Below are positions 78 through 45,950 of a DNA stretch of 49,131 nucleotides, one piece after another. Position 1 is the stretch's first letter; every line of letters begins with the position of its first letter. The DNA comes from a virus (taxonomy: Duplodnaviria > Caudoviricetes), in the IMG/VR virus record IMGVR_UViG_3300029775_000339, positions 1-49,131 of that record; one strand, given 5' to 3'. The notes under the pieces were generated by a model. That model did not search any database and was not told the DNA's origin. It was given only the letters and a program-made list of their open reading frames with translations. A program made the position numbers and the translations under genes.

Positions 78-2640
78 TAAGTACGCAGCCCATGTAAGAG
101 AAAATTTGGGATATTTTATTGCGTATGAAAATCTTTTTTCAACTTGGCTTAACAAAGGTAACGATTTTGACATATCCAATGTTAGGGATGCATTATCTGC
201 TTATGACCGTAACATTGATGATGTATATAGAAAAGTGTTTGAGAAAATTTTCAATACATTGCAGACAGGGTTATCTAAGCTTGGAGAAACTGCACAAGCA
301 CAAACAAAAGCTGTAAAAAGTCTTCTTAAATTGATAAGAAAAATTCCTATGGATGGAAAGCAGGACTATGATATTCTTGGCTTTATTTATGAATATCTGA
401 TTAGTATGTTTGCTGCCAACGCAGGTAAAAAAGCAGGAGAATTCTACACTCCGCATGAAGTTTCTGTTCTAATGTCAGAAATCATTGCAGAGCATTTGAA
501 AAATAGAAATCAAATTAAGATATATGACCCTACATCTGGGTCGGGTTCGTTATTGATAAATATCGGTAATTCCGTTGCAAAATTTATCGAAGGAGAAAAT
601 AAGATAGATTATTATGCACAGGAACTTAAGGAAAATACTTACAACCTCACAAGAATGAACTTGGTTATGCGAGGGATTAGCCCCGCAAATATTAATGTAA
701 GAAATGGTGATACGTTAGAGGATGACTGGCCATTTTTTGAGGATACAGATAAGGATAAGACATACAAATTGATACGTGTGGATGCTGTCGTTTCGAATCC
801 ACCTTACTCTCAAAAGTGGGACCCTTCGAATAAAGAATTTGAAGCTCGTTACAAAAACTATGGTATTGCACCAAAGAGTAAAGCTGATTATGCATTTTTA
901 TTGCATGATCTGTATCATCTAGAAGACGATGGTATCATGACAATTGTTCTTCCACATGGTGTACTTTTTAGAGGTGGAGATGAAGGTAAAATCAGAGAGA
1001 ATCTTATAGAAAAGAACAACATAGATGCCATTATAGGATTGCCACCAAATATTTTCTTTGGTACCGGTATTCCTACTATCATCATGGTTCTTAAAAGAAA
1101 TCGCCCTACTTCAGACGTGTTGATTATAGATGCATCTAAAGGGTTTGAGAAAGCTGGAAAGAATAATGTATTGAGAGCACGTGACATTAAAAAAATTGCT
1201 GACGTTGTTAAGAGCAGAGAATCCATTGAAGAGTATTCTGCACTTGTTTCTAAGGAAACCATTCGAGAAAATGGTTATAACCTTAATATCCCTCGTTATG
1301 TTAATTCATTAGAACCTGCAGAGAGTTGGGATATTCATGCGACTATGTTTGGTGGAATACCTGTAAAGGAAGTAGACCAACTCTTTGAGTATTGGGAGGC
1401 TTTCCCAAAACTCAGAGATGCAATTTTTCAGAAAATGTCTAATGAATATTTGGCTGTGAAATGCGATGATATTAAAGCGGCTATTACCTCTCATGAGTCA
1501 TTGAAAAACTACAAGCAGGCATTCTCAAATGAATTTAGTGATTTTTATAAAAAACTTAAAAATGATTTGATTGAAGAAATTCTTGATGTGTCTGCTGAGA
1601 ATGAGAAAGAAAAGGTAAGTGTGGATATTTTTGCAAGAATAGAAAATGTGAAACTTGCTGACAAGTACAAAGCATATCAGATACTTTCGGATAATTGGGA
1701 TGTGATTTCTACAGATTTGGAAATGATTCAGTCAGAAGGGTTTGAGGTTATCAATCAAGTAGACCCTAATATGGTTGCAAAAAAGAAGGAAGCTAACGAT
1801 GACGAGATTCCAGAGGTACAAGATGGATGGAAGGGTCATATACTACCTTTTGATTTAGTTCAAAGAGAGATTCTTACCGAAGATTTAGAAGAACTTCAGG
1901 CAATAGAAAAAAGATTAATTGAAATCACTTCTTTGTATGCTGAAATTATCGATTCGCTTGATGCAGAAGAAAGAGAAAGCAATGTATTGAATGACACAAA
2001 CGATGCTTTTGTAGCAAAGGAAGTTAAGAGTTTTGTTGCAGAAGCCCTCAGTGATGTGGAAAATGATGAAATTAAAATATTAAGAGGGTATCTAAGTCTT
2101 TCAAAGAAAAAAGAAAAGCTAGATTATATAAATAAATGTGATACAGTTTCGTGGGATTTAATGGAACAAGGTTCAGATGGGACATATAAGAAAGGCTCTG
2201 TTACTAGTAGAATAAGCGAATTACAAAGAACATATGAATTCCCGGAAGATTCCTTTGAATACAAAGTGATGACTGTATTATCTCTTATGGAAGAAGAAAG
2301 CCAGGCTAAAAAAGATCTAAAACAGAAATGGGAAGCCCTCCATATTAAGACCAAAGAAACCATTGAAAATCTTGATGAGGACGCATCTTTGCGTTTGCTG
2401 GAATTAAAATGGATAAAGCCATTAGTAGATTCTCTTTTTGCTATTCCAGATGAAATTATTGGAGAACTGATTAATAAAGTAATTCATCTAAACGAAAAAT
2501 ATTACATTACGTTTTCTGATATTGAAAATCAAATCGAAAACACAAGTGAAGTATTATCAAATATGATTGACGAGCTTGTTGGCAACGATTATGACACTAA
2601 AGGATTAGCAGAATTAAAGAAGATTTTGGGGGTACAGTGA
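78..2640 (+). pseudogene. hsdM: Type I R-M methyltransferase subunit HsdM, 5'-truncated by the IS; long C-terminal extension
   Basis: Motifs GEFYTP, YDPTSGSGSLL (motif I) and NPPY (motif IV). The frame is open from base 79 (KYAAHVRENLGYF...) right at the IS end, with no convincing start or RBS. The usual N-terminal HsdM segment is missing. Confidence 0.88.
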
Positions 2641-3905
2641 TGGCAAAAAAAAGAAAAAAACCTGAAATCAGATTCTCTGGATATGAAACTGAGTGGATTG
2701 AGAAAAAGTTTGATGAGACATTCGATATGCTTTCTAATAATACATTATCCAGAGATGCGTTAAACTATGATGGTGGTGCGGCAAAAAATGTTCATTACGG
2801 TGATGTGTTGGTTAAATTTGGAGAGTATATTGATGTCAATCGTCAGCAACTCCCTTATATCAGTGACGATTCCATTGCACTGAAGTTTATCAAATCATAC
2901 TTGAAAGATGGAGATATTGTCATTGCGGACACAGCAGAAGACGAGTCCGTAGGAAAATGTACGGAAGTAATTGGTATTGAAGATACTCCTGTTATTTCAG
3001 GGTTGCATACTATACCATGCCGTCCAAAACAGAAATATGCACCAAAGTATATGGGGTATTATCTGAATTCAACTGTGTATCATGAACGCTTATTACCTCT
3101 AATGCAGGGGGTAAAGGTTACATCTATTTCAAAGACTGGAATAAAAGATACCGATGTAATCATTTCACAAGAATTTGAGGAACAAGCAAAAATTGGTTAT
3201 TTTTTATCTTCGTTGGATGATAAGATAGGTTTTGAAGTGTCTAAGATTAAAAAACTTACAATTGTAAAAAAATCATTAATGGAAAAAATGTTCCCCCCAA
3301 ATGGTAGCAATGTGCCAGAGATTCGATTTAATGGATTCACTGACCCTTGGGAACAACGTAAGGTTGGAGAAATTCTTGTTGAGCGTAATGAACAATTTCC
3401 TCAAAGCAATGAATACCCACTTATGGCTTTTATTGCAAACGAAGGTGTTGCACCTAAAGGCGATAGATATGATAGAAGTTTTCTTGTTAATGATAGTGAA
3501 AATAAAGCGTACAAAAGAACGGAATTTGGAGATTTTATTTATAGTTCAAATAATCTTGAAACAGGTTCTATTGGACTTAATAAGTATGGGAAAGCCTCAC
3601 TTTCACCAGTTTATAGTATTTTTGAACCAACTGAAAATACAGATTCAGATTTTATTGGGAGAATGCTTGTTAGAAAAGAATTTATCAATGAAATGGTAAA
3701 ATGGAGACAAGGCGTTGTTTATGGACAGTGGCGTATTCATGAATCAGATTTTATAAAAATTAAGGTCTTTGTTCCCAAAATAGAAGAACAGAGGAAAATT
3801 GGAAATTTTCTTGACAGCATAGATAACCTTATAAAGATTCATCAACGTAGGCTTGAAAAGTTAAAGAATATTAAAGCGTCTTGTATGGAAAAAATGTTTG
3901 TTTAA
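2640..3905 (+). CDS. hsdS: Type I R-M specificity subunit HsdS (two TRDs)
   Basis: Repeated conserved segments PEIRFSGY..W / PEIRFNGFTDPWEQRK and EEQAKIG / EEQRKIG...EKMF; overlaps the hsdM stop. Confidence 0.95.
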   Translation: MAKKRKKPEIRFSGYETEWIEKKFDETFDMLSNNTLSRDALNYDGGAAKNVHYGDVLVKFGEYIDVNRQQLPYISDDSIALKFIKSYLKDGDIVIADTAEDESVGKCTEVIGIEDTPVISGLHTIPCRPKQKYAPKYMGYYLNSTVYHERLLPLMQGVKVTSISKTGIKDTDVIISQEFEEQAKIGYFLSSLDDKIGFEVSKIKKLTIVKKSLMEKMFPPNGSNVPEIRFNGFTDPWEQRKVGEILVERNEQFPQSNEYPLMAFIANEGVAPKGDRYDRSFLVNDSENKAYKRTEFGDFIYSSNNLETGSIGLNKYGKASLSPVYSIFEPTENTDSDFIGRMLVRKEFINEMVKWRQGVVYGQWRIHESDFIKIKVFVPKIEEQRKIGNFLDSIDNLIKIHQRRLEKLKNIKASCMEKMFV

Positions 3906-3917
3906 GGGGGGATAGAA

Positions 3918-6900
3918 TTGTATTTTGATAAAGAAACAGATTTTGAAGAGGCTGTCATAAAAGCCTTGATAGAATGTGGCTGGGAGTCAGAAGTAATTCG
4001 ACATCCTTCAGAAAAAGACTTGATAAAGAACTGGGCAGACATTTTGTTTAATAACAATCGGCAGAAAGACCGTTTAAATGAATGCCCATTGACAGACGGA
4101 GAAATGCAGCAGATTATGGAGCAGATTAAACTGCTGCAATCTCCTATCAAATTAAATAGTTTTATTAATGGGAGAAGTGTGTCTATTAAACGAGACAACC
4201 CACATGATAAAGAGCATTTCGGTAAAGAAGTTAGCTTAAAAATTTATGATCGCCAAGAAATTGCTTATGGTGAGAGTAGATATCAAATAGTGCAACAGCC
4301 TCATTTCCCTACAAAGTCGCCTATTCTAAATAATAGGCGTGGAGATTTAATGCTGTTAATAAATGGTATGCCTGTTATTCACATTGAATTAAAAAAGAGT
4401 GGAATACCGGTAAGTGAGGCATACAACCAGATAGAAAAATATTCTCACGAGGGTGTATTTAGGGGATTGTTTTCACTAATTCAAGTCTTCGTTGCAATGC
4501 AACCGGATGAGTCTGTGTATTTCGCAAATCCGGGAGAAGGAATGAAGTTTAATAAAGCATTCTATTTCCATTGGGAGAATTTTAATAATGAGCCGATCAA
4601 TAAGTGGGATGAGGTTATTGCAAAACTACTTAATATTCCTATGGCTCATATGCTTATAGGTTTTTATACCATTGCCGATACTGAAGATGGTGTATTGAAA
4701 GTAATGAGAAGTTATCAGTACTATGCTGCAATAGGTATAGCTGATAAGGTAGCTAAGAAGAATTGGAAAGAAATAAGCCAGTTGGGAGGTCATGTATGGC
4801 ATACTACAGGTTCAGGTAAAACAATGACCAGTTTTAAGTCTGCACAGTTGATTGCCAGTTCACATGATGCAGATAAAGTTATTTTCTTAGTTGACAGAAA
4901 AGAACTAGGAATACAATCCTTAAAGGAATATAGATCCTTTGCAAATGAAACAGAATCTGTACAAGCCACTGAAAATACTGATATTCTCATCTCAAAGCTT
5001 AAAAGTGATGATTTGGATAATACACTGATAGTAACATCAATACAAAAACTGAGTAATATCTCTGAAGAGGCGTTGGCCTTAAATGAAGCTGATTTAAAGA
5101 TAATTCAATCAAAACGAATTGCAATTATAATCGATGAATGTCATCGTTCTACTTTTGGTGAAATGCTAACCACTATTAAGAGTACATTTAAGAATTCAAT
5201 AATTTTCGGATTTACTGGTACTCCTATTCAGGATGTAAATATTAAGAAGGATAGCACAACGCCAACAATCTTTGGTGATGAAATACATCGATATACCTTG
5301 GCAGATGGTATCAGAGATAAAAATGTATTAGGTTTTGACCCATATATGGTAAAAATCTACGATGACTCTGCCCTTAGACAAGCGGTAGCACTTCATAAAG
5401 CCAAGGCAGCTAATGTGGAAGAAGTTATGGGTGACCCTAAAAAAGAAAAGATGTTCTATAAGTACATGGATTCTTCGCAAGTCAAAATGTATGGTGAACA
5501 AGTTGATGGGAAATGGGTTGCTGGCATTGAAGATTTTATACCAAACGAACAGTATCAAACAGATGAATACAGAAACGGCGTAATAGCTGATATCAAGAAG
5601 AAATGGACTATTTATAGCCGAGGCAGAAAGTTCCATGCGATTTTTGCCACAAGTAGTATTCCAGAGGCTGTTGCATATTATCGATTAATGAAAGCGGAAT
5701 TGCCGAGTTTAGCTATTACTGCAATGTTTGATCCTAGCATTGATAACGAAGGTGGCGGGTCGTTGGAAAAAGAAGATGGCATCGTTGAAATGCTTGAAGA
5801 TTATAACGGGAGATTCTCTCAGTCTTTCACTATTCCGACATACGATAAATTTAGAAAAGATGTAAGCTTAAGATTGGCTCATAAAAAACCTTATGAAAGA
5901 ATCAACCAAGACGAGCAAATTGATATTATTATTGTTGTAAATCAAATGCTTACTGGGTTCGATTCTAAATGGGTTAACACGCTGTATTTAGATAAGGTAA
6001 TGGAGTATGAGAATCTGATTCAGGCATTTTCAAGAACCAACAGATTGTTCAATTTTGCGGAGAAACCTTTTGGTATAATTAAATACTACAGGCGACCTAA
6101 TACAATGGAGAAAAACATAGAGGCTGCTGTAAAGGCTTATTCAGGGGACATTCCGTTAGGTTTGTTTGTGGACAAGTTACCAAACAACCTGAGACAGATA
6201 AATTGGTTGTTTGATGAGATGGAATTACTATTTAAGAATGCAGGCATAAGCGACTTTGAGAAGTTACCAGATGAGTCTTCTGTAAAAGCTAAATTTGCAA
6301 AGCAGTTTAAACAATTCTCTACACATTTAGAGGCAGCAACAATACAAGGGTTCACTTGGAGTCAAAATACATATACCGATGAAAACGATGAAAGTATTAT
6401 AATGCACCTAGATGAAATGACATACCTAATCCTACTTACCAGATATAAAGAGTTAGCAAAAGGTGGTGGAGGTGGGGTTCGAAGTGGAGATGTGCCATAT
6501 GAAATCGACACACATATTACGGAGTATGACACAGAAAAAATCGATGCAGACTATATGAATTCAAGGTTTGAGAAATTCTTAAAATTAATACAAAGTGAGT
6601 ATGATGCAGAGTCCTTGGATAAGACATTGAAAGAATTGCACAAATCATTTTCTATGCTATCCCAAGAAGAGCAAAGATATGCCAACATCTTCATTCACGA
6701 TATACAAGCTGGAAATATACAAATTATTCATGGAAAATCATTTAGAGAGTATATTTCAGAAATGATGAAAAGAGCAGAGAATGACAAAATTAAGTTGGTT
6801 ATAAATAGACTTGGTTGTTATGAAAAACTTCTCCGTGAATTGCTTGAAAGAAAAGTAACAAAAGAAACAATAGAAGCTCATGGTAAATTTGAAGAATTAA

Positions 6901-7889
6901 AGACTACTGTAGATGAACAAAAAGCAAGAATATTTTTTATGCAGGTTGAAGGAAATAACTATCAAGAATCTAGACTTGCAATGTATATTGAACAATATTT
7001 AAGACAATTTCTTTTAAGTGGTGGACAGGATCCGTATACTTATCTTTATCCTAATGTTGAATATAACGAAGTTATAAGAGAGAAAAATGAAAACAACGAT
7101 TATACTAGTGTTGGAATTACTTTAACAGAAGAAAAAATGGCAGGAAAATCCGTTATATCTTCTCTTAAGAGTACAACACTGAATAATTGGTATTCAGAAA
7201 GTAAGGCATTAGGTTGTATACTAGAAACAGATTGTTTCGCTTATGTAGAGAACAAGCTGTGCATCTACGATAGCAAATATATTCAACGTGATGATAATGG
7301 AAGATTTTTCCTTACAAATTATGCAAAGGAGCATGGAGAAGAATGCTTCCTTCAATTTGTGATTGACGATGAAACTGGAGAATTGCATTATGTAACATTA
7401 CCTGCAGCTTTGGCGAGCAAATCTTTTAATTATTATGATGAAATAGATGAAGATTTACTTACACAATATGGTCTTGTCAACGAAATGTCGCAAGAAATGC
7501 TAATTGCTATAAATGGAATGGAGTTTGGTGATGCTCTGACTAAGTTGATGAGCAAAAATATATGCAGTTATTCTGTTCGATTATTGAGGGCTACCACTGG
7601 GTTAGATAATAATACTATTAGTAATCTAAGAAAAGGAGCAAACCTCACAAAACTTAATGTTATTTCCACATGTTTGGGTATACATATTCCATTTCGCGTT
7701 AGTAATAAGATGTTACAACTTGCTGAATTATCTTTAAACTCAGAATTGCCGGGGAAAAAAGGTGAAGAAAATAGCATATATGATTCTCTTCTACATTTGA
7801 AATGGGCAACTGATTATGATGATGTCTACGAAGAATTGAAGGATCAAAGCTATGATTATTTGATTCATCAGCCCCCAGTGAAAAAATAA
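3918..7889 (+). CDS. hsdR: Type I R-M restriction subunit HsdR with an extra ~285-aa C-terminal domain ending in an HTH-like region
   Basis: Nuclease motif D..LLINGMP..HIELK, Walker A HTTGSGKT, DECHR, FTGTP, LTGFD and QAFSRTNR. The HsdR-like sequence appears to end near LSGG (~7017-7025) but the ORF continues to 7889. Confidence 0.93.
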   Translation: MYFDKETDFEEAVIKALIECGWESEVIRHPSEKDLIKNWADILFNNNRQKDRLNECPLTDGEMQQIMEQIKLLQSPIKLNSFINGRSVSIKRDNPHDKEHFGKEVSLKIYDRQEIAYGESRYQIVQQPHFPTKSPILNNRRGDLMLLINGMPVIHIELKKSGIPVSEAYNQIEKYSHEGVFRGLFSLIQVFVAMQPDESVYFANPGEGMKFNKAFYFHWENFNNEPINKWDEVIAKLLNIPMAHMLIGFYTIADTEDGVLKVMRSYQYYAAIGIADKVAKKNWKEISQLGGHVWHTTGSGKTMTSFKSAQLIASSHDADKVIFLVDRKELGIQSLKEYRSFANETESVQATENTDILISKLKSDDLDNTLIVTSIQKLSNISEEALALNEADLKIIQSKRIAIIIDECHRSTFGEMLTTIKSTFKNSIIFGFTGTPIQDVNIKKDSTTPTIFGDEIHRYTLADGIRDKNVLGFDPYMVKIYDDSALRQAVALHKAKAANVEEVMGDPKKEKMFYKYMDSSQVKMYGEQVDGKWVAGIEDFIPNEQYQTDEYRNGVIADIKKKWTIYSRGRKFHAIFATSSIPEAVAYYRLMKAELPSLAITAMFDPSIDNEGGGSLEKEDGIVEMLEDYNGRFSQSFTIPTYDKFRKDVSLRLAHKKPYERINQDEQIDIIIVVNQMLTGFDSKWVNTLYLDKVMEYENLIQAFSRTNRLFNFAEKPFGIIKYYRRPNTMEKNIEAAVKAYSGDIPLGLFVDKLPNNLRQINWLFDEMELLFKNAGISDFEKLPDESSVKAKFAKQFKQFSTHLEAATIQGFTWSQNTYTDENDESIIMHLDEMTYLILLTRYKELAKGGGGGVRSGDVPYEIDTHITEYDTEKIDADYMNSRFEKFLKLIQSEYDAESLDKTLKELHKSFSMLSQEEQRYANIFIHDIQAGNIQIIHGKSFREYISEMMKRAENDKIKLVINRLGCYEKLLRELLERKVTKETIEAHGKFEELKTTVDEQKARIFFMQVEGNNYQESRLAMYIEQYLRQFLLSGGQDPYTYLYPNVEYNEVIREKNENNDYTSVGITLTEEKMAGKSVISSLKSTTLNNWYSESKALGCILETDCFAYVENKLCIYDSKYIQRDDNGRFFLTNYAKEHGEECFLQFVIDDETGELHYVTLPAALASKSFNYYDEIDEDLLTQYGLVNEMSQEMLIAINGMEFGDALTKLMSKNICSYSVRLLRATTGLDNNTISNLRKGANLTKLNVISTCLGIHIPFRVSNKMLQLAELSLNSELPGKKGEENSIYDSLLHLKWATDYDDVYEELKDQSYDYLIHQPPVKK

Positions 7890-7898
7890 ATATTCTCT

Positions 7899-7935
7899 AA
7901 AAATAGATCAGACTTGAAGTCTGGTCTATTTTTTT
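7899..7935 (+). terminator. Intrinsic terminator after hsdR
   Basis: Inverted repeat AAAAATAGATCAGACTT-G-AAGTCTGGTCTATTTTT followed by more Ts. Confidence 0.75.
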
Positions 7936-7954
7936 ATGCTCAAAAAAATATTTT

Positions 7955-7974
7955 TGTTGAACTTTGTTCAACGG
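7955..7974. promoter_or_regulatory. Putative operator 1 (GTTGA-N7-TCAAC palindrome)
   Basis: TGTTGAACTTTGTTCAACGG; 17/20 identical to the copy at 8053-8072. Confidence 0.6.
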
Positions 7975-8052
7975 ATATTGGTCGTAAGATGTGCAATTTT
8001 ATAAGAATTTAAGATGTTTTTACGAATAAACCCAGTAGACAGCCATTTTGGC

Positions 8053-8072
8053 TGTTGATGTTTATTCAACGG
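8053..8072. promoter_or_regulatory. Putative operator 2 (GTTGA-N7-TCAAC palindrome)
   Basis: TGTTGATGTTTATTCAACGG; sits at the -35 position relative to a TATTAT hexamer at 8092-8097. Confidence 0.6.
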
Positions 8073-8220
8073 GTAAAAGAAGCAAAGAGAGTATTATTAG
8101 TTTAACAGGAGTAACTTCCTGAAATATACTCTCAATTCCTTGAGATGGCCATTAAAGGTGGTAGTGTGCATTCAATCAGGGAACATCTATTTAGCAATGT
8201 AGACTAAGGAGGTGAACATC

Positions 8221-8361
8221 ATGGCGAAGAACTTAAAGCAGACATCAAAATCAGTTGCTTCACAGGCAAGTAAGATTTTGAAGGATGGTCGTTATAGCAA
8301 TACTGCTAAGTCAGTGGCTGGAAGTGCGTTAGCACAGACCAAAACAAGCAAGAAAAAATAA
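8221..8361 (+). CDS. Small basic protein, 46 aa (MAKNLKQTSKSVASQASKILKDGRYSNTAKSVAGSALAQTKTSKKK); absent from the ORF track
   Basis: Near-perfect RBS AAGGAGGTG just upstream of ATG 8221; clean ORF to TAA at 8359-8361; internal repeat T.KSVA. Confidence 0.8.
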   Translation: MAKNLKQTSKSVASQASKILKDGRYSNTAKSVAGSALAQTKTSKKK

Positions 8362-8452
8362 TCTTGTAAAAACGGTAGATAGTGACGGATTTGAATAATC
8401 AACCTATCTACCTCCCCAAGTGGGGAGAAACAATCAATAAATCAAATATCAC

Positions 8453-8565
8453 AGGCCTGATTAGCTATAGGGGCTGGGATACAAATATTGAAACTGTCAC
8501 TGTGAAAGCAGTGATGGGTGCAATATGAAGTACCCTTTTTTCCTTATGCCCTAATCAGGCCTTTT
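8453..8565 (+). ncRNA. Putative structured cis-regulatory RNA (~110-nt rod-like hairpin)
   Basis: Perfect 12-bp closing stem AGGCCTGATTAG/CTAATCAGGCCT with nested stems ATATTG/CAATAT and CTGTCACTGT-GAAA-GCAGTGATGG. Confidence 0.5.
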
Positions 8566-8648
8566 CAATTGGTGTACTTCATAAGCACGTACCATATTTG
8601 TTCCCTTGCCCCTCTGCAAGAACCAGGCAGAAAGGCAAGGGAATTTTT

Positions 8649-9206
8649 ATGAAAATTCGTAAAACAAGAACAGAAGATCGTGGGGTATACAGATACCCAA
8701 TCAGTGTACCAGATGGCAATGGAGGCTATCATCAAGACAACATTATTATTCGACCAGGAGAAAATGAAATAACCGAAGCCTGGATATCTACACTTCATTC
8801 ATTGGATGACAGTGAGGTTTATTACAACTGTAAAAATGGACATCCACCTATGTCAGCAGACGAAAAAGCTGCAAGAAAAGAATGGGAAGAAGAACATCCA
8901 GGTGAAAAGTACCCAATTGGCTGGAATTTGTCATTAGATTACTACGCAGATTCTGATGACGATTCATCGGATAAGCAGAAGTTCTTAGAAGATACATCAT
9001 TTTCATTTGGAGATAATGTATCGCCAGCAGTAGAACATTTGCATGAACTTGTAGATACCATGACTGACAGACAGCAGGAAGTTTACAAGCTTCTCTTTAT
9101 AGAAGAATGTTCATTAACAGAAACTGCTGAGATTCTTGGCATGAGTGTACCAACCGTTTACAACCATAAAAAACGCATCTTAGAGATTATAAAAAAGAAT
9201 TTCTAA
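8649..9206 (+). CDS. Sigma-70 region 4 domain protein (phage sigma-like regulator)
   Basis: C-terminal MTDRQQEVYKLLFIEECSLTETAEILGMSVPTVYNHKKR is a typical region-4 HTH. I prefer ATG 8649 over the track's TTG 8598. Confidence 0.85.
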   Translation: MKIRKTRTEDRGVYRYPISVPDGNGGYHQDNIIIRPGENEITEAWISTLHSLDDSEVYYNCKNGHPPMSADEKAARKEWEEEHPGEKYPIGWNLSLDYYADSDDDSSDKQKFLEDTSFSFGDNVSPAVEHLHELVDTMTDRQQEVYKLLFIEECSLTETAEILGMSVPTVYNHKKRILEIIKKNF

Positions 9207-9218
9207 AAATATTTCCAA

Positions 9219-9257
9219 GGGGCTAATAAACCGACTGTTTCCTTTGACTGTGACTTG
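9219..9257 (+). promoter_or_regulatory. Candidate element-specific promoter, copy 1 (GGGGCTAA-N16-TTTGACTGTGACTTG)
   Basis: The same bipartite motif with the same spacing recurs at 13899-13937; both copies are intergenic and precede a gene block. Confidence 0.65.
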
Positions 9258-9293
9258 TAAGGGAGATGACCTTACAGAAAGCGAGGTGGTGAT

Positions 9294-9500
9294 ATGGCAT
9301 TGAAACACAAAATCATTATTAATGTCACTGATCCAAGCGGAAAGAAAGCCACTGTTTTAAGAGGTGCAGATATGAGATTGCCTTCGAGAATTGTGAAGTT
9401 CCTTTTTGGAGATTTCACCCAGGTATATCTTCTTGCACCGGGACAGTCGGTTGCATCCGTGGATGTAAAAGAAGTCAAGGAAGGAGGCAATGTTTCATGA
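9294..9500 (+). CDS. Small phage hypothetical protein
   Basis: RBS GAGGTGGTG; first gene of the replication block; overlaps the next start. Confidence 0.75.
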   Translation: MALKHKIIINVTDPSGKKATVLRGADMRLPSRIVKFLFGDFTQVYLLAPGQSVASVDVKEVKEGGNVS

Positions 9501-13983: not shown

Positions 13984-14781
13984 ATGAATGAATTACAAGT
14001 TTTCCAAAGTACAGAGTTTGGCTCTGTAAGAGCAGTCACAGTCAATGGTATTCCCTATTTTGTGGGAAAAGATGTAGCAGATATTCTTGGCTATGAAAGA
14101 CCCGCAAAGGCAATTCTCGATCATGTAGATGAAGATGATAAAGATGAAGTCCCAATTCAGGACTCCATCGGAAGAATGCAAAACACACCTGTCATTAATG
14201 AAAGTGGTCTTTATAGTCTTATTCTTTCAAGCAGGATGCCAAGTGCGAAAAAGTTCAAGCGTTGGGTAACTAGTGAGGTTCTCCCTGCTATCCGCAAACA
14301 TGGTGTTTATGCAGTTGATGAGTTACTTAATAACCCAGATATGTTGATTGCAGCACTTACGAAACTAAAATCAGAGCGTGATAGAAATAAGGCTCTTACA
14401 GAAACAGTTGCAGTACAAAATCAGCAGATTGTGGAGATGAAACCCAAAGCATCTTATTACGATGTGGTACTTAACTGTAAAGACCTGGTTGCCATTTCTG
14501 TTATTGCAAAAGATTACGGCTGGAGTGCCAATCGTATGAACAGATATCTTCATGATAAGGGTGTTCAGTTTAAGCAGAGCGCTATCTGGCTTTTATATCA
14601 GAAATATGCGGAAAAAGGATATACAAGCACGAAAACTCATAGCTATCCTGGCAATGACGGAAGTATTCATACAAAGGTTCATACTTATTGGACGCAGAAA
14701 GGCAGACTTTTTATCTACAGTCTTATGAAGGAAGATGGATATTTTCCTTTGATTGAGCAGGAGGATGAGTATGGGAATTGA
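13984..14781 (+). CDS. Phage antirepressor (BRO-N + KilAC/ANT domains)
   Basis: FVGKDVADILGY, INESGLYSLI and FKRWVTSEVLPAIRKHG (BRO-N); KPKASYYD and WTQKGRLFI (ANT). Confidence 0.92.
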   Translation: MNELQVFQSTEFGSVRAVTVNGIPYFVGKDVADILGYERPAKAILDHVDEDDKDEVPIQDSIGRMQNTPVINESGLYSLILSSRMPSAKKFKRWVTSEVLPAIRKHGVYAVDELLNNPDMLIAALTKLKSERDRNKALTETVAVQNQQIVEMKPKASYYDVVLNCKDLVAISVIAKDYGWSANRMNRYLHDKGVQFKQSAIWLLYQKYAEKGYTSTKTHSYPGNDGSIHTKVHTYWTQKGRLFIYSLMKEDGYFPLIEQEDEYGN

Positions 14782-22456: not shown

Positions 22457-23982
22457 CAATGTCGTCAACTTAAGAGATAAAGAAAAAAGTCAAAAATATT
22501 TAAAAAAACACTTGACAATAGGATAAAAATTTGTAGCCTCCCAGTGAATATTACATTTACTGGGAGGCATTTTCATGAATCATATAAAAATTTTATCAAT
22601 TATTCTAAGACGAACTAATACTCTAATAAAATCTGAAGATTATAAAGAATCCTACAGAATAGGCAACTCATTTTCAAGAAATAGAAAATTATCCTTTTCT
22701 AATGCTATTTATTTTATCTGCTCTGCACTTCGAAAATCACTTTCTTCTGAAATACATAATTTTATTGGTGAACATTCTTATTTAGAGTTTCCTGATATAT
22801 CAAAACAAGCATTTTCAAAAGCAAGACAAAACATTTCCCCCGAGGCTTTTAAAGAGCTTTGTAGGCTATTTGTTGACTCTTACTACAACTCGAATATAAA
22901 TCTTAAAAAATGGAATGGATTTAATATTTTTGCTATTGATGGAACTACATTGCAAATACCAGATACATCAGAAAATATTGAACACTTTGGAGCAAGCACA
23001 AATCAATCAAAGACTAAAACTGCCCTTGCGTCGGCATCAGCCCTATATGATGTTTTAAATGACATTGTTATTGATGCTGTAATATCGCGTTATAGAACAA
23101 GTGAAAGAGAACTAGTTAAACAACATATAAATTCTATAAATAATGCTAAATTATTAGACAATAGTGTTGTACTTTTTGATAGAGGTTATCCCTCATATGA
23201 GATGTTTGACTTCTTAGACGAGAAGGGGTTGTTCTTTGTAATACGTTTATCATCATCTTACAAAGAAATACAAGCAATTAATTCAAATGATTCTATTTTA
23301 AATTATAATTTTGGACCAATTTCAAAGAAAGTAAGAATTATAAAAATCAAACTTCCTGATGGGACTATAGAAATGTTAGCAACCAATATTTTTGACAAAA
23401 GTATTACTACCACTTTATTCAAGGAATTATATTTTCTTAGGTGGGGCATTGAGTGTAAATACAAAGAACTTAAAAGTAGTATTGAAATAGAAGAATTTTC
23501 AGGAACTAAGCCAATTGCTATAAAGCAAGATTTTTATGTATCTATTTATTTATCTATGGTTGCATCACTTATAAAGACTGATGCCGATGCTGCGATAGCA
23601 AATGATAATAAACATAAAACCTTAAAATCAGAATATCAAGCAAATAGAAATTTTATATTAAGTGAAGTTTTGAAAAAGATTGTAACTATCATGGTGAAGC
23701 CTATTTCAGGGAAGCGAATATTAGAAATTTTATTAGAAAAAGCTAAAAAAATACGTTCACAAATACGCCCAAACCGTACTTGTGAACGAAAAAATAAACA
23801 CCCAAGGAAAAAGCATCATTCTCAAAGGAAATCTTGCATATAAGTCTATAAAAACTAAATATTCCCAAAAACTACTTTTACCAGTAGGTTTATTAATTGT
23901 ACCATTTTTTTGTTAAATAGCACAATTATTTTTAAATTTATTGTAATTTTTATATTACTGTTTTGTTAAGTTGACGACATTG
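22457..23982 (+). mobile_element. Complete IS4-family insertion sequence, 1526 bp, 17-bp terminal IRs, no target duplication
   Basis: CAATGTCGTCAACTTAA (22457-22473) / TTAAGTTGACGACATTG (23966-23982); the second copy at 1-77 confirms the right end. Confidence 0.93.
22575..23843 (+). CDS. IS4-family DDE transposase
   Basis: AIDGT, FDRGY and Y..RWGIE..YKELK (YREK signature). Confidence 0.93.
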   Translation: MNHIKILSIILRRTNTLIKSEDYKESYRIGNSFSRNRKLSFSNAIYFICSALRKSLSSEIHNFIGEHSYLEFPDISKQAFSKARQNISPEAFKELCRLFVDSYYNSNINLKKWNGFNIFAIDGTTLQIPDTSENIEHFGASTNQSKTKTALASASALYDVLNDIVIDAVISRYRTSERELVKQHINSINNAKLLDNSVVLFDRGYPSYEMFDFLDEKGLFFVIRLSSSYKEIQAINSNDSILNYNFGPISKKVRIIKIKLPDGTIEMLATNIFDKSITTTLFKELYFLRWGIECKYKELKSSIEIEEFSGTKPIAIKQDFYVSIYLSMVASLIKTDADAAIANDNKHKTLKSEYQANRNFILSEVLKKIVTIMVKPISGKRILEILLEKAKKIRSQIRPNRTCERKNKHPRKKHHSQRKSCI

Positions 23983-24315
23983 GCCGTGCAGATGGTTCAG
24001 AACCTTGAAGGTTTAGGCTTTACTGTAGTTCCTTTTGGTCAGGGTTATAAGGATATGAGTCCGCCTACAAAGGAGTTTATGAAAATAACCTTAGAACAGA
24101 AAATAGCACATGGAGCACATCCAGTACTCTCCTGGATGATGGATAATGTTTATGTTAGAACCGACCCTGCAGGAAATATAAAGCCGGATAAAGCAAAGTC
24201 CACTGAAAAAATAGATGGTGTTGTGGCACTTGTTATGGCACTGGATAGGGCAATAAGGAGAGAAATGAAAGAAAATATTTATGAAAAAAGAGGAATGAGA
24301 AGCTTACTTGATTAG
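23983..24315 (+). pseudogene. terL: 3' fragment of terminase large subunit (end of nuclease domain)
   Basis: AVQMVQNLEG.GFTVVPFGQG, HPVLSWMMDN, DPAGNIKPDK and KIDGVVALVMAL; begins at the IS end; the ATPase domain is absent. Confidence 0.9.
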
Positions 24316-29444: not shown

Positions 29445-29589
29445 TAATTTGAAATATAGATTACTTCTTAATTATAAAGATAATATGAAGAAAAAATAGA
29501 ATTCATTATAATCTTAAAATTGCTGTTGTAAAAAATTTTATAATCTAATATCATTTGAGTTAAGACGAAGATTGAAGGTGATTATAAAT

Positions 29590-30342
29590 TTGGAAGAATT
29601 ATATGATATGATTTTTAAAAGGAAGTCATTTAGAAAATTTAATGATACGTTAATCCTTTCAAAAGAGGAATTGCAAGATATAAATCAGCAAATAAAAAGT
29701 TTAAATCCTCTTATAAAGGATATAGAAATAAAGTGTAAAATTGTTCCAAGGGAAAAAACTACATGTAAACGCGGAGAATATTGCTTGATTATTTACAGCG
29801 AAGAAAAAGAACATTATCTATTAAATATTGGTTATATGTTTGAGCAGTTGGATTTATGTTTAGCATCAAAAAATATAGGTGTATGTTGGTATGGAATGGG
29901 AAAAGTAAATGAACCCCAGTACGAGAATTTTAAATATATAATAATGATGGCTTTAGGAAAGGGGATAGAAAGCGAATTTAGGAAAAACTATAAAAAGAGC
30001 AAACGAAAAGAAACAAGAGATATCTGGAAAGGCGATTTGAGCCTTGAGATAGCTGATTTTGTTAAATATGCTCCAAGTGCTTGCAATACTCAACCATGGA
30101 GAGTTATTTGTGAAAATTATATATTGAAGGTATATCGAACCACAGAAGTTAAATCAATTATGCCGAAAGGAAAAGTGCCTTTTTATAATTCAATAGATAT
30201 GGGTATTTTTCTATATTTTTTAGAGTTAACTTTATCACATAATGGATTTTCCTTTCAAAGAACTCTGAGTCCTGAAAATAATAATTCTAATTTAATATCT
30301 ATAGCAACATATACTTTAGAAAAAAATAAAAATAAACCATAG
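29590..30342 (+). CDS. Nitroreductase-family protein (cargo)
   Basis: IFKRKSFRKF, GVCWYG, APSACNTQPWRV and IDMGI motifs. Confidence 0.85.
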   Translation: MEELYDMIFKRKSFRKFNDTLILSKEELQDINQQIKSLNPLIKDIEIKCKIVPREKTTCKRGEYCLIIYSEEKEHYLLNIGYMFEQLDLCLASKNIGVCWYGMGKVNEPQYENFKYIIMMALGKGIESEFRKNYKKSKRKETRDIWKGDLSLEIADFVKYAPSACNTQPWRVICENYILKVYRTTEVKSIMPKGKVPFYNSIDMGIFLYFLELTLSHNGFSFQRTLSPENNNSNLISIATYTLEKNKNKP

Positions 30343-41132: not shown

Positions 41133-41188
41133 GATTATTTATATAACACGCAGTTTGATAAATAGTGTTTTGTATAGGAGAGTATAAA

Positions 41189-41935
41189 ATGTACCAGAAA
41201 GTACTAAATGGAAATCAATTAAAAATTATAGCAATGATTGCAATGACAATAGACCATCTTACGAGTGTGCTATATCCGAATTACCCAACAGATTGGTGGA
41301 TTATTGTACTACATATCATTGGAAGGCTGGCGGCACCTATTTTTTGGTTCTTTGTGGCAGAGGGTTATCATTATACTCATGATATAAAAAAATATGCTGG
41401 CAGATTGTTTATCTTTGCAGTAATTTCGCATTTTGCTTATAATTTCGCCTTTGGGATACCTTTTATACCTTTTCAGACCTCCATATTTAATCAGACAAGT
41501 GTTATTTGGTCTTTGGCTTGTGGTCTTGTAGCATTGGCAATACATGAAAGCAACCGATTTAAGCAGTGGCAAAAGACACTGCTAATCCTTGGAATTACGG
41601 TTATTACATTTTGTTCAGATTGGAGCAGTATTGCAGTACTGGCAATTATACAAATTGGTGCAAATCGTGGAAACTTTAAAAAGCAAATGACTGCAATGAT
41701 GCTATGGATATCAGTATATGCTACCGTATATGCTGTTTTTATCAATCCTATTTATGGTATTCTACAACTATTTGTTGCACTTACAATTCCGCTGTTGAAA
41801 ATGTATAATGGTGAGCGTGGTACTTGGAAAAGTATGAAATGGTTTTTCTATGTTTATTATCCGCTTCATTTAGTTATTTGCGGTCTGATCCGAATTGTAT
41901 TGCATGGAAATGTTGGCGTTATGATTGGTGGGTGA
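41189..41935 (+). CDS. TraX-family membrane protein (putative acyltransferase; cargo)
   Basis: LKIIAMIAMTIDH, IGRLAAPIF.FFVAEG..YT, YNGERG and FFY.YYPLHL. Confidence 0.88.
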   Translation: MYQKVLNGNQLKIIAMIAMTIDHLTSVLYPNYPTDWWIIVLHIIGRLAAPIFWFFVAEGYHYTHDIKKYAGRLFIFAVISHFAYNFAFGIPFIPFQTSIFNQTSVIWSLACGLVALAIHESNRFKQWQKTLLILGITVITFCSDWSSIAVLAIIQIGANRGNFKKQMTAMMLWISVYATVYAVFINPIYGILQLFVALTIPLLKMYNGERGTWKSMKWFFYVYYPLHLVICGLIRIVLHGNVGVMIGG

Positions 41936-42026
41936 TAAATTCCAATCATGGTCAAATTATTCTAATAAAGCGTCACAGTGGTAATTTATCGTGAATTAAA
42001 TAATAGAGTTTTTGGAGGAATAGAGG

Positions 42027-42524
42027 ATGAGGGTGAATTATAAAAACATTAATAACTATTTTCAAGAACTACCTACCTTAAAGTTTATTATTGCTATGGT
42101 CTTAGCTACATATTTAGCCATAGTACCATTTATTCCACTATTTTATCTATATGAAAAATACATAGGACAAATGGGGGGACCAGATAGCTTAGAAACATCA
42201 TCTCTATTGGCAAAAATTATAGTTGGCTCAATAATAGGTCCTATATTAGAAACGATTATTTTCCAATATGGAATTATTGAAATTTTGAGTTCTATTAAGA
42301 TTTTTAAAGAAAAAAAGATTATTATTGCTATAATTTCGTCGTTACTATTTGCAATTTCACATAGTTATAGTTATTTATATATTTCCTATAGTTTTATAAT
42401 AGGTTTAGTATTAGCATATTCATATTTAACTTATAAAAAAAAGAATTTCTCTGCTTTTGGAGTTGTTTTCTGGATTCATTGCATAAGAAACACAATTTCA
42501 ACTATTTTATTTATGTTAGATTGA
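42027..42524 (+). CDS. CPBP (CAAX/Abi) family intramembrane protease-like protein (cargo)
   Basis: GPILETIIFQ (degenerate EExxxR), SSLLFAISH and IHCIRN (HxxxN). Confidence 0.78.
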   Translation: MRVNYKNINNYFQELPTLKFIIAMVLATYLAIVPFIPLFYLYEKYIGQMGGPDSLETSSLLAKIIVGSIIGPILETIIFQYGIIEILSSIKIFKEKKIIIAIISSLLFAISHSYSYLYISYSFIIGLVLAYSYLTYKKKNFSAFGVVFWIHCIRNTISTILFMLD

Positions 42525-44303: not shown

Positions 44304-44387
44304 TGGGGAACGTAGATTTATCATCACACTACCAATCAAGTTAAGTCATTGGGGTTTAGAATATAAAAAATATTGGAGGAATTAATT

Positions 44388-45950
44388 ATGGGCGTTTATG
44401 GATATATTAGAATTTCAAGGGATGAAGATGGCAGCAGAGATAGCATAGAAAGTCAAAGAAATGTAATAAGGGTTTTTGCAGAAGAAAGCGGACTTATGAT
44501 TGATGATATTATAGAAGATAATAATGTTAGTGGTTATACCTATGATAGACCTGGACTTAATGAATTAAATGAACTAATAGATGAAGGTAAAGTTGACATA
44601 CTACTTGCAAAAGACCTTTCAAGAATAGGAAGGCATAATGCTAAGACGCTTTTATATATTGAACATCTTGAAGAAAAGAATGTAAAACTTATGCTTAAAA
44701 GTGGATATCAAGATGAAAATTTAAGAGGAATTGAGACATGGTATAATGAAATGTATATAAGGGATCTAAGTAGAAAAACTAAGGAAGCCTTAAGAGTAAA
44801 AGCTAAAGCCGGGGAAGTTCATATTACAAACTTTGGTTATAAAAAAGATCCGAACAATAAAGTTAAATGTATAATTGATGAAGAATCAGCAGAAACAGTA
44901 AAGATAATATTTAGATTATTTATTGAAGGTAATGGGTGTACTAAAATTGCTAAATATTTGAATGGTCATAAAGTAACAACACCAGCTATTAGAAAACAGG
45001 AATTATACGGATATGGATGGAAAAAAGAATGGACTTTAAAGGAAGTATGGACAGGAGGAATGGTAAGTAGAGTTCTAAAAAATGATGCATATATAGGAAC
45101 GGTAAGAAGGGGCAAGACAAGGAGAAATAAAATTAGGGATAAGAAAATAATTGAAGTTCCTATTGAAGAGCAATATGTACATAAAAATATGCTTCCAATA
45201 ATAATTAGTAAAGAAACTTTTGAAGCAGTTCAAATGATTTTTCAAAAACGTGTAACTAATGGTGTAAAAGCAAAACAAAAGCCTATAGGAAAATATACAG
45301 GTATATTAAAATGTGGGAAATGCGGTAAAAATCTTGTAATAACAAATTCAACAACGAAAAGTAGGGGTAAAGAAACTTTTTATATTTGCGGTACATACAA
45401 CCGATATGGAAGCAATTATTGTACAAGGCATACTATAAAAATTGATGATGTTGATGAAATAGTTTTTAATGAAATTGAAAGATTATATACTCAGGGACTT
45501 ATACGGCTTGATAATATTGATAATAAAATAGAAAAGAAACATAAGAATAATGCTAATGAAAAGAGAGTAGACAGGCTTAAAAGGGAAGTTGAAATGAAGA
45601 AGGCTGAAATAAAAAACTATTCAAAGCAACTTGCAAAGGGACTTATATCAGAAGAAATTTTCAAAGAAATGACAGATGAAGCTAATCAGGATTTAATAAA
45701 GCTTGAGAATATACTTGAAGAAGCTATAAACATTAATCATATAAGAAAAACTGAAAAAGCTAGAATCACAAAGGCAATTGATGTATTAAAGGAAATTATT
45801 GAAAGAAAAGAATTAACAAACTCAGATATAACGATGATTATTGATAAAATAGTTATCCATGAAACCTTTAATAAAAAGAAGGAATCAAAGCTTGATGTTG
45901 AAATAATGTGGAATACCCCGTTTATAGGAATAATTGATGAAGAAAATTAG
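44388..45950 (+). CDS. Large serine recombinase (integrase)
   Basis: YIRIS (catalytic Ser), SG...DRPG, DLSRIGR, recombinase domain (LKNDAYIG, PIIISKETFE), Zn ribbon CGKCG...YIC...C and coiled coil. Confidence 0.93.
   Translation: MGVYGYIRISRDEDGSRDSIESQRNVIRVFAEESGLMIDDIIEDNNVSGYTYDRPGLNELNELIDEGKVDILLAKDLSRIGRHNAKTLLYIEHLEEKNVKLMLKSGYQDENLRGIETWYNEMYIRDLSRKTKEALRVKAKAGEVHITNFGYKKDPNNKVKCIIDEESAETVKIIFRLFIEGNGCTKIAKYLNGHKVTTPAIRKQELYGYGWKKEWTLKEVWTGGMVSRVLKNDAYIGTVRRGKTRRNKIRDKKIIEVPIEEQYVHKNMLPIIISKETFEAVQMIFQKRVTNGVKAKQKPIGKYTGILKCGKCGKNLVITNSTTKSRGKETFYICGTYNRYGSNYCTRHTIKIDDVDEIVFNEIERLYTQGLIRLDNIDNKIEKKHKNNANEKRVDRLKREVEMKKAEIKNYSKQLAKGLISEEIFKEMTDEANQDLIKLENILEEAININHIRKTEKARITKAIDVLKEIIERKELTNSDITMIIDKIVIHETFNKKKESKLDVEIMWNTPFIGIIDEEN

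Follow-up and report, generated by a model that had tools for sequence, protein, structure and literature searches.

Why should the restriction subunit of a phage-borne type I restriction-modification (RM) system end in what resembles part of a phage regulator? The question is raised by a stretch of 49,131 bases, hereafter the window, which is the entire IMG/VR virus record IMGVR_UViG_3300029775_000339 (estimated completeness 82%). Its genes run in the order hsdM, hsdS, hsdR, a leader of ~700 nt, a sigma-like gene, a replication module, packaging, head and tail genes, and a recombinase. The hsdR frame continues into a tail with a predicted helix-turn-helix (HTH) domain, and two palindromes, termed O1 and O2 here, follow its stop codon. 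The answer suggested by comparison of sequences and predicted structures, and on balance a probable one, is that a phage regulator module was fused to HsdR and that it likely binds O1 and O2, regulating, and most probably repressing, the early operon that begins with the sigma-like gene.

A complete HsdR with an in-frame tail

The hsdR gene and the parts of its tail are as follows.

3918..7889, + strand: hsdR, whole open reading frame (ORF), 1323 residues, core plus in-frame tail
3918..7025, + strand: hsdR core, EcoR124-type, residues 1-1036, by Pfam and TIGR00348
7026..7181, + strand: linker, residues 1037-1088, variable, with disorder predicted in the first ~27 residues (predicted local distance difference test, pLDDT, <50)
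7113..7430, + strand: alpha/beta domain, tail residues ~30-135, pLDDT 92.1 when folded alone
7512..7748, + strand: Cro/CI (Xre)-type HTH domain, tail residues 163-241, five helices, by structure match
Putative recognition helix of the tail HTH: TGLDNNTISNLRKG
7752..7889, + strand: two C-terminal helices of the tail, conserved as ...YDxxLHLKWAxDY...LIHQPP, with the stop codon TAA at 7887-7889

Judged by its sequence, the 1323-residue protein is a true HsdR with a complete core. Pfam places HSDR_N at residues 6-206, SWI2_SNF2 at 266-473, T1R_D3 at 570-725 and EcoR124_C at 749-1029, all of them above cut-offs, SWI2_SNF2/ResIII included. TIGR00348 (hsdR) scores 334.6 bits over residues 9-742 against a cut-off of 284.55. 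The translation also contains the strings GSGKT, DECH and an N-terminal D...ELK, which we take to be the Walker A motif, the DECH box and the nuclease motif of HsdR. A preliminary description of this DNA had placed the end of the HsdR part at about LRQFLLSGG and quoted strings from an in-frame tail. The strings are present, and 287 residues follow LRQFLLSGG (residue 1036) in frame, at 7026-7886 of the window.

A sequencing error, which that description had considered, does not explain the fusion. Contigs from 3 public runs of 3 studies bridge the junction at position 7026 with 0 inserted or deleted letters, so the reading frame is not an artefact of a single record; a fourth run gave no contig on the stretch, which does not speak for absence. 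The fused form is also widespread. A search of HsdR-length proteins with the tail only gave 148 clusters; among the 120 matches listed, 109 have a length of 1309-1369 residues and the HsdR domain set, with tail identities of 50-86%. The source names are Clostridia, Negativicutes, Tissierellia, Streptococcus and one archaeal metagenome-assembled genome, and fused forms span at least four classes of Bacillota. Isolates with names among the carriers include Propionispora sp. 2/2-37, Clostridiisalibacter paucivorans, Roseburia lenta and Blautia luti. When the core only was searched, 109 of the 120 nearest HsdR relatives (65-93% identity) were of fused length, which makes the tail the norm in this HsdR clade; the shorter relatives are mostly flagged partial or lie on short contigs. 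A search of the GenBank phage collection with the tail (tblastn) returned only 2 distant records and 0 fused forms.

A scan with one genome per species yielded 25 fused loci, which are cited below by number where needed. In 19 of the 25, an uninterrupted frame runs from the HsdR N-terminus to the end of the tail, and in another 4 it stays open up to the contig end. Two are broken: L023 is cut by IS110 after ~231 tail residues, and L024 is a remnant with a stop codon. The preliminary description had left a choice between a chance deletion-fusion and a conserved system. The conserved system stands (148 clusters, 25 genomes), and a chance fusion unique to the strain is refuted, with the junction recurring in divergent Bacillota genomes, in a number of them beside the leader and a sigma-like gene. 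The junction ...LLSGG-QDPY... is identical in divergent members and hence points to a single origin of the fusion.

Selection was assessed as the ratio of nonsynonymous to synonymous changes (dN/dS) by the Nei-Gojobori method in nine unsaturated pairs, the tail pairs having synonymous distances (dS) of 0.08-1.0. The structured tail gave values of 0.05-0.14 and the core values of 0.03-0.08, by which measure both halves are under purifying selection. The linker gave 0.13-0.65 in most pairs and 0.00-0.06 in the near-identical L015/L016/L018 pairs; its identity between distant fused forms is just 27-40%. The dS of core and tail is unequal in some pairs (1.10 vs 0.60 for the window and L003), and this difference suggests recombination within the hsdR-tail gene. 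An internal start producing a separate tail protein was rejected, since the methionine at tail residue 39 is not conserved (there is none in P0011) and the single long frame is kept in 19 loci.

The tail belongs to a family of phage regulators

Predicted by AlphaFold2 with the family alignment, the tail reached a pLDDT of 87.8 and a predicted template modelling score (pTM) of 0.81. In this model, it contains a Cro/CI-type five-helix HTH fold, in agreement with the Xre-like HTH read earlier from the letters. All 50 of the 50 VIA-align matches listed fall on tail residues 163-241, with Z 5.1-6.7, and nearly all are HTH domains of the Xre/Cro-CI type. C.AhdI matches with Z 6.4 and a root-mean-square deviation (rmsd) of 1.6 Å over 60 residues, and the DNA-binding domain of ImmR with Z 6.3; further matches are the DdrO DNA-binding domain, Stl, P22 c2 and the 434 repressor. 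For C.AhdI, ImmR, DdrO, P22 c2 and 434, the rmsd ranges from 1.6 to 2.5 Å over 60-66 residues. The RM controllers C.AhdI, C.BclI and C.Esp1396I rank among the best fold matches of the tail. The recognition-helix region is among its best-kept parts.

Other searches gave little. The tail had no match in Pfam, NCBIfam or PDB chain sequences (PDB: 0 at an expectation value, E, of 10 or better). Foldseek with the whole tail against PDB and BFVD returned nothing at E 1e-3, the weak top rows being C.BclI and Stl. For the alpha/beta domain alone, VIA-align gave no match with a Z of 5 or more (the highest was 3.3), and Foldseek had none at E 1e-3 or better; absence of a solved match does not make the fold new. 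The domain carries the family signature FAYVE..C...KYI...G...LT.YA..H..EC.L.F. and is as conserved as the HTH. Its family consensus keeps Cys/His positions (YVExHxCxN...YAxxHxxECCLxF), which hints at a metal or redox site. A homodimer prediction with two copies of tail residues 28-287 (score 0.07, mark 0.42) speaks neither for nor against dimerisation.

The descent of the tail is clearer from its relatives. An exhaustive, profile-free HMMER search against 1.84 billion representatives gave 177 matches in three classes. The first holds close relatives of 48-81% identity, of which the long ones run upstream into HsdR (P0003 with 1330 aa, P0006 and P0008). The second holds many proteins of 580-730 aa that match through their C-terminal ~200 residues only, at 23-33% identity, and the third stand-alone forms of ~250 aa. 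Among 64 aligned non-HsdR relatives, Peptidase_M78 (IrrE N-terminal-like) was found in 23 and HTH_3/HTH_26 in 31-32; the 18 fused tails in the alignment are not among the HTH-family matches listed. Additionally, the phrog_4031 profile matches the tail with its positions 389-621 of 626 (the last 233) at E 1.9e-16. The peptidase part of this profile, as located by matches of stand-alone peptidases, covers positions ~125-355, and the tail aligns beyond it. Peptidase_M78 has no match in the 1323-aa protein or in the tail. These sequence matches make the tail a homologue of the C-terminal module found in ImmA/IrrE-peptidase-HTH proteins of ~520-670 aa, the resemblance that the preliminary description had pointed out. 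The fused protein belongs to phrog_4031 in part only, at the level of this module, and is neither an ImmA/IrrE peptidase nor a C protein.

Unfused relatives and the origin of the fusion

Of 301 genomes sampled from the order to which Roseburia lenta belongs, 38 have matches to phrog_4031, and 3 of the matches are fused forms, with frames of ~1330 aa. Thirteen unfused loci were fetched, representing 11 distinct ImmA-HTH proteins, of which 10 match Peptidase_M78 at E 0.01 or better. A replication module with family A polymerase (PolA) lies directly 3' of the ImmA-HTH gene in L069, L073, L074 and L080, and DUF2800 and single-stranded DNA-binding protein (SSB) genes are also present in L073, L074 and L080. 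A sigma-like gene follows in L079 and L080, and weakly in L069. Another case is NatCom_34063, an Anaeroplasmataceae phage classed in Ca. Heliusvirales, with a 635-aa homologue between GmrSD/methyltransferase cargo and sigma-like/DUF2800 genes. ImmA-HTH regulators upstream of sigma-like genes had been foreseen for related phages, and these four loci (L069 weakly) bear this out.

The slot of the ImmA-HTH gene in related phages is the position of the fused hsdR, in which HsdR takes the place of the N-terminal and peptidase parts. The proposal that HsdR replaces the peptidase agrees with both the position and the lack of Peptidase_M78. Locus L080 offers the unfused order: hsdM, hsdS, hsdR (1013 aa), ImmA-HTH (519 aa), sigma-like gene, DUF2800, SSB and PolA, with nothing fused. 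It is a second prophage (G002:C10:122426-135925) in the same Propionispora genome as L003, the closest fused relative, and its type I system is of a different family (24% HsdM identity). In L079, a type I hsdR stands two genes 5' of the ImmA-HTH gene, with a YgjP-like peptidase gene also just upstream. Eleven of the 13 unfused loci have no RM partner. Defence cargo beside the regulator is a recurring layout. As the gene orders suggest, the fusion most likely came about by a simple deletion that began at the 3' end of an hsdR cargo gene, extended into the neighbouring ImmA-HTH gene and would have removed the N-terminal and peptidase domains of the latter.

Palindromes between the tail and the early operon

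The region between the tail and the early operon contains the following elements.

7905..7935, + strand: 9-bp hairpin with a T run, directly 3' of the stop codon, kept in the alignment of 17 leaders
7956..7972: palindrome O1, GTTGAACTTTGTTCAAC
8038..8056, + strand: second hairpin with a T-rich run, between O1 and O2, at the same place in most relatives
8054..8070: palindrome O2, GTTGATGTTTATTCAAC, then the conserved GGGYAAAA
8092..8130, + strand: candidate early promoter elements, TAnnnT at 8092-8097 or TTAACA-17-TATACT at 8102-8130
8221..8361, + strand: small leader ORF, 46 aa, phrog_5079 (E 1.9e-22)
8598..9206, + strand: sigma-like gene, first long gene of the early/replication operon, Sigma70_r4_2 (E 3.3e-10), phrog_1740

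The sequence GTTGA-N7-TCAAC occurs in 2 copies in the window, 67 and 165 nt past the hsdR stop; these are the pair noticed earlier, and the pair is conserved in relatives. Shuffling gave 0.03 expected copies, and 2 or more copies were seen in 0 of 100 shuffles. A relaxed pattern found no further sites above chance elsewhere in the window, and the exact palindrome does not occur at 1-105, 5' of hsdM. In 10 relatives, the exact palindrome lies just 3' of the tail stop, and it occurs twice in L003, L005, L006, L009 and L027. The 17 aligned leaders share one order, namely the hairpin with its T run, O1, a variable stretch often with a hairpin, and O2 with GGGCAAAA. A TAnnnT hexamer 21 nt past O2 is invariant in these leaders (columns T203, A204 and T208) and often follows TG. 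If this hexamer is the -10 element, the centre of O2 would lie near -42. The TTCAAC half of O2 was considered as a -35 hexamer and dropped, as it is 21 nt from the conserved hexamer. The hairpin at 7905..7935 is likely the terminator of the RM operon; a simple scan scored it on the minus strand only. The interval between O1 and O2 could give a short transcript or form a tandem terminator. A -10-like hexamer lies in this interval (7973-8056), reading TAAGAT in the window and TATAAT in L003 and L009.

The half-sites differ between lineages. GTAGA half-sites occur in six Lachnospiraceae-type loci, which are all the loci with the recognition helix TVSN, and in 0 TISN loci. Other half-sites of the fused clade are GTTGG/CCAAC in L019/20 and GATGA/TCATC at O1 of L013/21. 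At the corresponding position, unfused loci have palindrome pairs of their own. L073/74 carry two copies of TGGACATGCCATGTCCA separated by 130 nt, and L070/71, similar to them in the recognition-helix regions, carry two of TGGAC-N7-GTCCA; the duplicated palindrome is AACTC..GAGTT in L079 and CATTAAGT..ACTTAATG in L076. TGACAT..ATGTCA is found in L001 and L080, and CGGACA..TGTCCG in L068 and L069. The pairs are less regular in L076, L001, L080, L069 and L072. By one fixed criterion, a repeated pair is present in 21 of 36 segments 3' of tail or ImmA-HTH genes, of which many come from related loci and do not count as 36 independent trials, vs 9 of 1476 control segments from the same loci. Such a pair is present in 16 of the 22 fused loci and in 5 of the 14 unfused loci. 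The palindrome pair behind the stop is thus conserved, and its sequence is lineage-specific. Sites that keep their position but change in sequence from lineage to lineage, next to an HTH that also differs by lineage, typically mark a repressor and its operator, and half-site spacing of this type is used by dimeric Cro/CI-type proteins.

What follows the palindromes was surveyed in 20 loci with at least 1 kb of 3' flank. In nine of them, the next gene matches Sigma70 region 4 with an E of 1e-3 or better (L003, L005, L010, L013, L014, L017, L019, L020 and L008, where it lies behind an inserted IS21). The next gene of L021 has a weak Sigma70 match; in L025 and L027, the next ORF is of equal size but has no such match. 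In the sigma-like protein of the window, region 4 alone was detected. Phage replication genes lie 3' in many fused loci, and also in 5 of 9 fusion-carrying IMG/VR contigs.

The leader between O2 and the sigma-like gene has features of its own. Positions 8100-8597 share 70-80% DNA identity with Ruminococcus, Streptococcus and Terrisporobacter phages, an element of the form ...GGGATGCAT...hairpin...GATGCACCCACCG... recurs in relatives, and the leaders of L003, L005, L014-L018 and L079 share hairpins. An Rfam scan of 7700-9300 gave only a chance-level miRNA match (E 0.27). This part may be an undescribed leader RNA or attenuator.

What the tail may do

In the proposed mechanism, the tail HTH, as a dimer, would bind O1 and O2 just downstream of its own gene. 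Their occupancy would control the sigma-led early operon, most probably as repression in the lysogen. By analogy with LexA and ImmA/ImmR, the same module in the unfused ancestors would be joined to an ImmA-like peptidase of its own; no Peptidase_M78 gene was seen among the ORFs of the window.

Several points weigh against operator binding and repression by the tail. It has no Pfam HTH match at E 0.05 or better, and the fold Z values are modest (5-6.7). The joint change of helix (I to V, T to A) and half-site is that of a single clade and counts as one evolutionary event. The unfused loci that pass the strict pair test are just 5 of 14, with near-duplicates among them. A consensus promoter scan prefers TTAACA-17-TATACT (10 of 12 matches) to the conserved hexamer, and its hit count is not above shuffles; moreover, activation as well as repression can be exerted from a site at -42. 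Among the public sequencing runs listed for 6800-8700, none is on record as RNA. The palindromes could instead be bound by the sigma-like protein or by a small, unseen HTH protein, each of them lineage-variable as well, and a separate small HTH gene does stand 5' of hsdM in relatives. Finally, prophage repression cannot be the sole selected role of the tail, because the tail is intact and constrained in loci where the lytic genes are absent or replaced (L007, L010, L015/16/18 and L026). In L010 (L010:11671-18480), uvrB and uvrA come immediately after a sigma-like gene, which is retained along with the leader and the fused RM operon; the locus resembles a prophage remnant cut down to the RM genes and the control region. 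In L015/16/18, a DUF2971 gene lies downstream, in L015 followed by an ORF6N gene and a serine recombinase, while L007 and L026 lead into host genes. In such decayed loci, the tail may still regulate genes behind the retained leader, or act on the enzyme.

Action on the enzyme is the most probable of the alternatives, though an unlikely one. The HTH would then serve HsdR itself by dimerising or tethering the two HsdR subunits, by parking the enzyme on DNA, or by RM autoregulation as in C proteins and regulatory methyltransferases. The purifying selection on tails in loci devoid of lytic genes fits this (dN/dS 0.07-0.10 in L015/16/18, together with L007, L010 and L026), as does the rank of C.AhdI, C.BclI and C.Esp1396I among the fold matches. 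According to the available part of a recent review, HTH-fused regulatory methyltransferases are an established form of RM self-control, and the C-terminal region of EcoR124I HsdR influences the cycling of the R1 and R2 complexes (PMC12707154). The exact palindromes, however, lie 3' of hsdR and not before hsdM, with L022 as the only upstream exception, and on this ground the idea that the palindrome generally serves RM promoter autoregulation was rejected. The operators also stay with the tail even in decayed loci, which fits control of the genes downstream, and the unfused module does without an RM partner in 11 of 13 loci.

Operator binding by the tail would gain further meaning if, with a repressor and a restriction motor in one polypeptide, the state of the enzyme set the lysogeny switch. 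This extension is rather improbable. In one form, loss of HsdR through nonsense mutation, frameshift or proteolysis, or its recruitment to unmodified DNA, would lift repression; if true, loss of the restriction gene would be punished, or the phage would escape a cell under DNA attack. In the converse form, the tail would guide the nuclease and translocase to operators on incoming related phages, and repressor immunity would become repressor-guided restriction.

A comparably doubtful alternative treats the HTH-shaped part as a protein-binding or sensor domain, with an antirepressor, an anti-restriction protein or a redox or metal signal through the alpha/beta domain as its input, and leaves the palindromes to another protein. 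It draws on an alpha/beta domain that is conserved like the HTH, has no known fold match and keeps its Cys/His positions, and on the Bro-N/ANT antirepressor-like gene in the early operon (13984-14781). IrrE, in the available part of one source, has an HTH and reportedly binds no target promoter (PMC2701414). Against this stand the lineage-specific palindrome pairs directly 3' of the gene in many lineages, and the recognition-helix region, which belongs to the best-conserved parts of the tail. The half-site spacing is, as established knowledge has it, typical of dimeric Cro/CI-type proteins.

That the tail is a functionless deletion relic hitch-hiking on the RM operon is strongly disfavoured and very improbable: the fusion does resemble a simple deletion between neighbours (compare unfused L080) and the linker is poorly constrained, but the tail has a dN/dS of 0.05-0.14, persists to ~53% identity over at least four classes of Bacillota, is broken in just 2 of 25 loci, and is predicted to fold compactly and with confidence.

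The RM operon and its upstream flank

The other two RM genes precede hsdR.

106..2640, + strand: hsdM, 844 aa as read, N6_Mtase (PF02384) at residues 87-403 (E 1.7e-101)
2637..3905, + strand: hsdS, 422 aa, two Methylase_S stretches

The hsdM of the window is unusually long, and its ~440 C-terminal residues match no family; the hsdM ORFs of relatives have 917-923 aa. Wherever the flank is long enough, orthologues of hsdM, together with hsdS, stand 5' of the fused hsdR, and the hsdS orthologues are variable (25-91% identity). In relatives, hsdM is preceded by a small HTH_3 gene of 71-86 aa (L003:2645-2857, L006:2769-3026, L007:2660-2872 and L012:2288-2500) or by an HTH_17 gene (L014:2654-2848 and L018:2417-2851). 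This gene may encode a C-protein-like controller, or the separate repressor or excisionase of the element. A host-type RNA uracil-5-methyltransferase gene lies further 5' in L006 and L015. The preliminary description had seen no separate CI-like repressor. This is right for the window, which has no other HTH_3-type ORF, and less secure for the phage: the window starts just 105 nt 5' of hsdM, and as relatives carry the small HTH gene at exactly this side, a separate small regulator may have been cut off.

Other genes of the window

Two further genes were placed on the map of the window.

13984-14781: Bro-N/ANT antirepressor-like gene, within the early operon
44373-45950: large serine recombinase, after the packaging, head and tail genes

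The replication module comprises a DUF2800 nuclease, an Enc34-type SSB, the family A polymerase, Bro-N/ANT, a primase-like protein and an SNF2 helicase. An insertion sequence with a DDE_Tnp_1 transposase (22575-23843) lies just 5' of a TerL fragment (23971-24315) of 114 aa, which matches the last third of the nuclease domain only. A TerL ATPase ORF was not seen among the ORFs of the window. With TerL reduced to this fragment of the nuclease end, the phage of this record is, as read, probably packaging-defective. Probable cargo is found at two places: a TM1586-type nitroreductase-like gene amid the head genes (29572-30342), and genes for a TraX-like protein and a CAAX-protease-like membrane protein 3' of the tail genes (41165-42524).

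Relation to known systems and significance

Much is known about type I restriction enzymes and about ImmA/Xre-type switches. The fused protein shares features with each. Its tail is homologous to the HTH-bearing C-terminal module of fused COG2856 (ImmA/IrrE)-Xre regulators (phrog_4031), and, as in ImmA/ImmR of ICEBs1 and IrrE/DdrO, a Cro/CI-type HTH is encoded at a site by the early control region of a mobile element. It differs in that the fused HsdR has no peptidase domain and no visible route of induction by cleavage. The phage subfamily also has its own order, with the peptidase, an extra alpha/beta domain and then the HTH. According to the part available of Makarova et al. 2009 (PMC2701414), COG2856 is joined to Xre by fusion in over half of cases, and a comparison with LexA is drawn there.

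The core resembles HsdR of the EcoR124I type (type IC), with the full domain set including EcoR124_C and with hsdM and hsdS adjacent. The fused protein is 287 residues longer, EcoR124I HsdR being given as 1033 aa in the available text of PMC12707154. The operon of the window also differs by running as hsdM-hsdS-hsdR in one direction, on a phage, with an unusually long hsdM. C proteins and regulatory methyltransferases likewise tie an Xre-type HTH to RM genes, and C.AhdI, C.BclI and C.Esp1396I are fold matches of the tail; regulatory methyltransferases provide a known case of an HTH translated as one protein with an RM enzyme (PMC12707154, available part). In contrast to C proteins, the HTH of the window sits at the C-terminus of a type I R subunit and not in a small stand-alone protein, it is of phage-regulator descent, and its presumed sites lie before phage genes and not at the RM promoter.

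The window is likened by gene order to temperate phages of Bacillota that resemble Ca. Heliusvirales (sigma-like gene, DUF2800, Enc34-type SSB, PolA and serine recombinase), and the nearest annotated phage with the regulator family is classed in this order. Ca. Heliusvirales is widespread in the human gut (PMC11283538). The terms sigma, repressor and ImmA have 0 occurrences each in the main text of that description (PMC11283538). No description of an HsdR-HTH fusion was found among the titles listed by a full-text literature search, nor in the available part of the 2025 RM review (PMC12707154). In public records, fused members go by the plain names 'type I restriction endonuclease subunit R' or 'DEAD/DEAH box helicase'.

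With 148 clusters and 3 of 301 sampled genomes of one order, the fused form is common. If the tail is an operator binder, it would offer an experimentally accessible example of a defence gene connected to lysogeny control, with natural specificity variants at hand (GTTGA, GTAGA, GTTGG and GATGA half-sites). If it is not, there would still be a large HsdR subfamily with a selected module of 235 residues, including an alpha/beta domain that has no solved relative.

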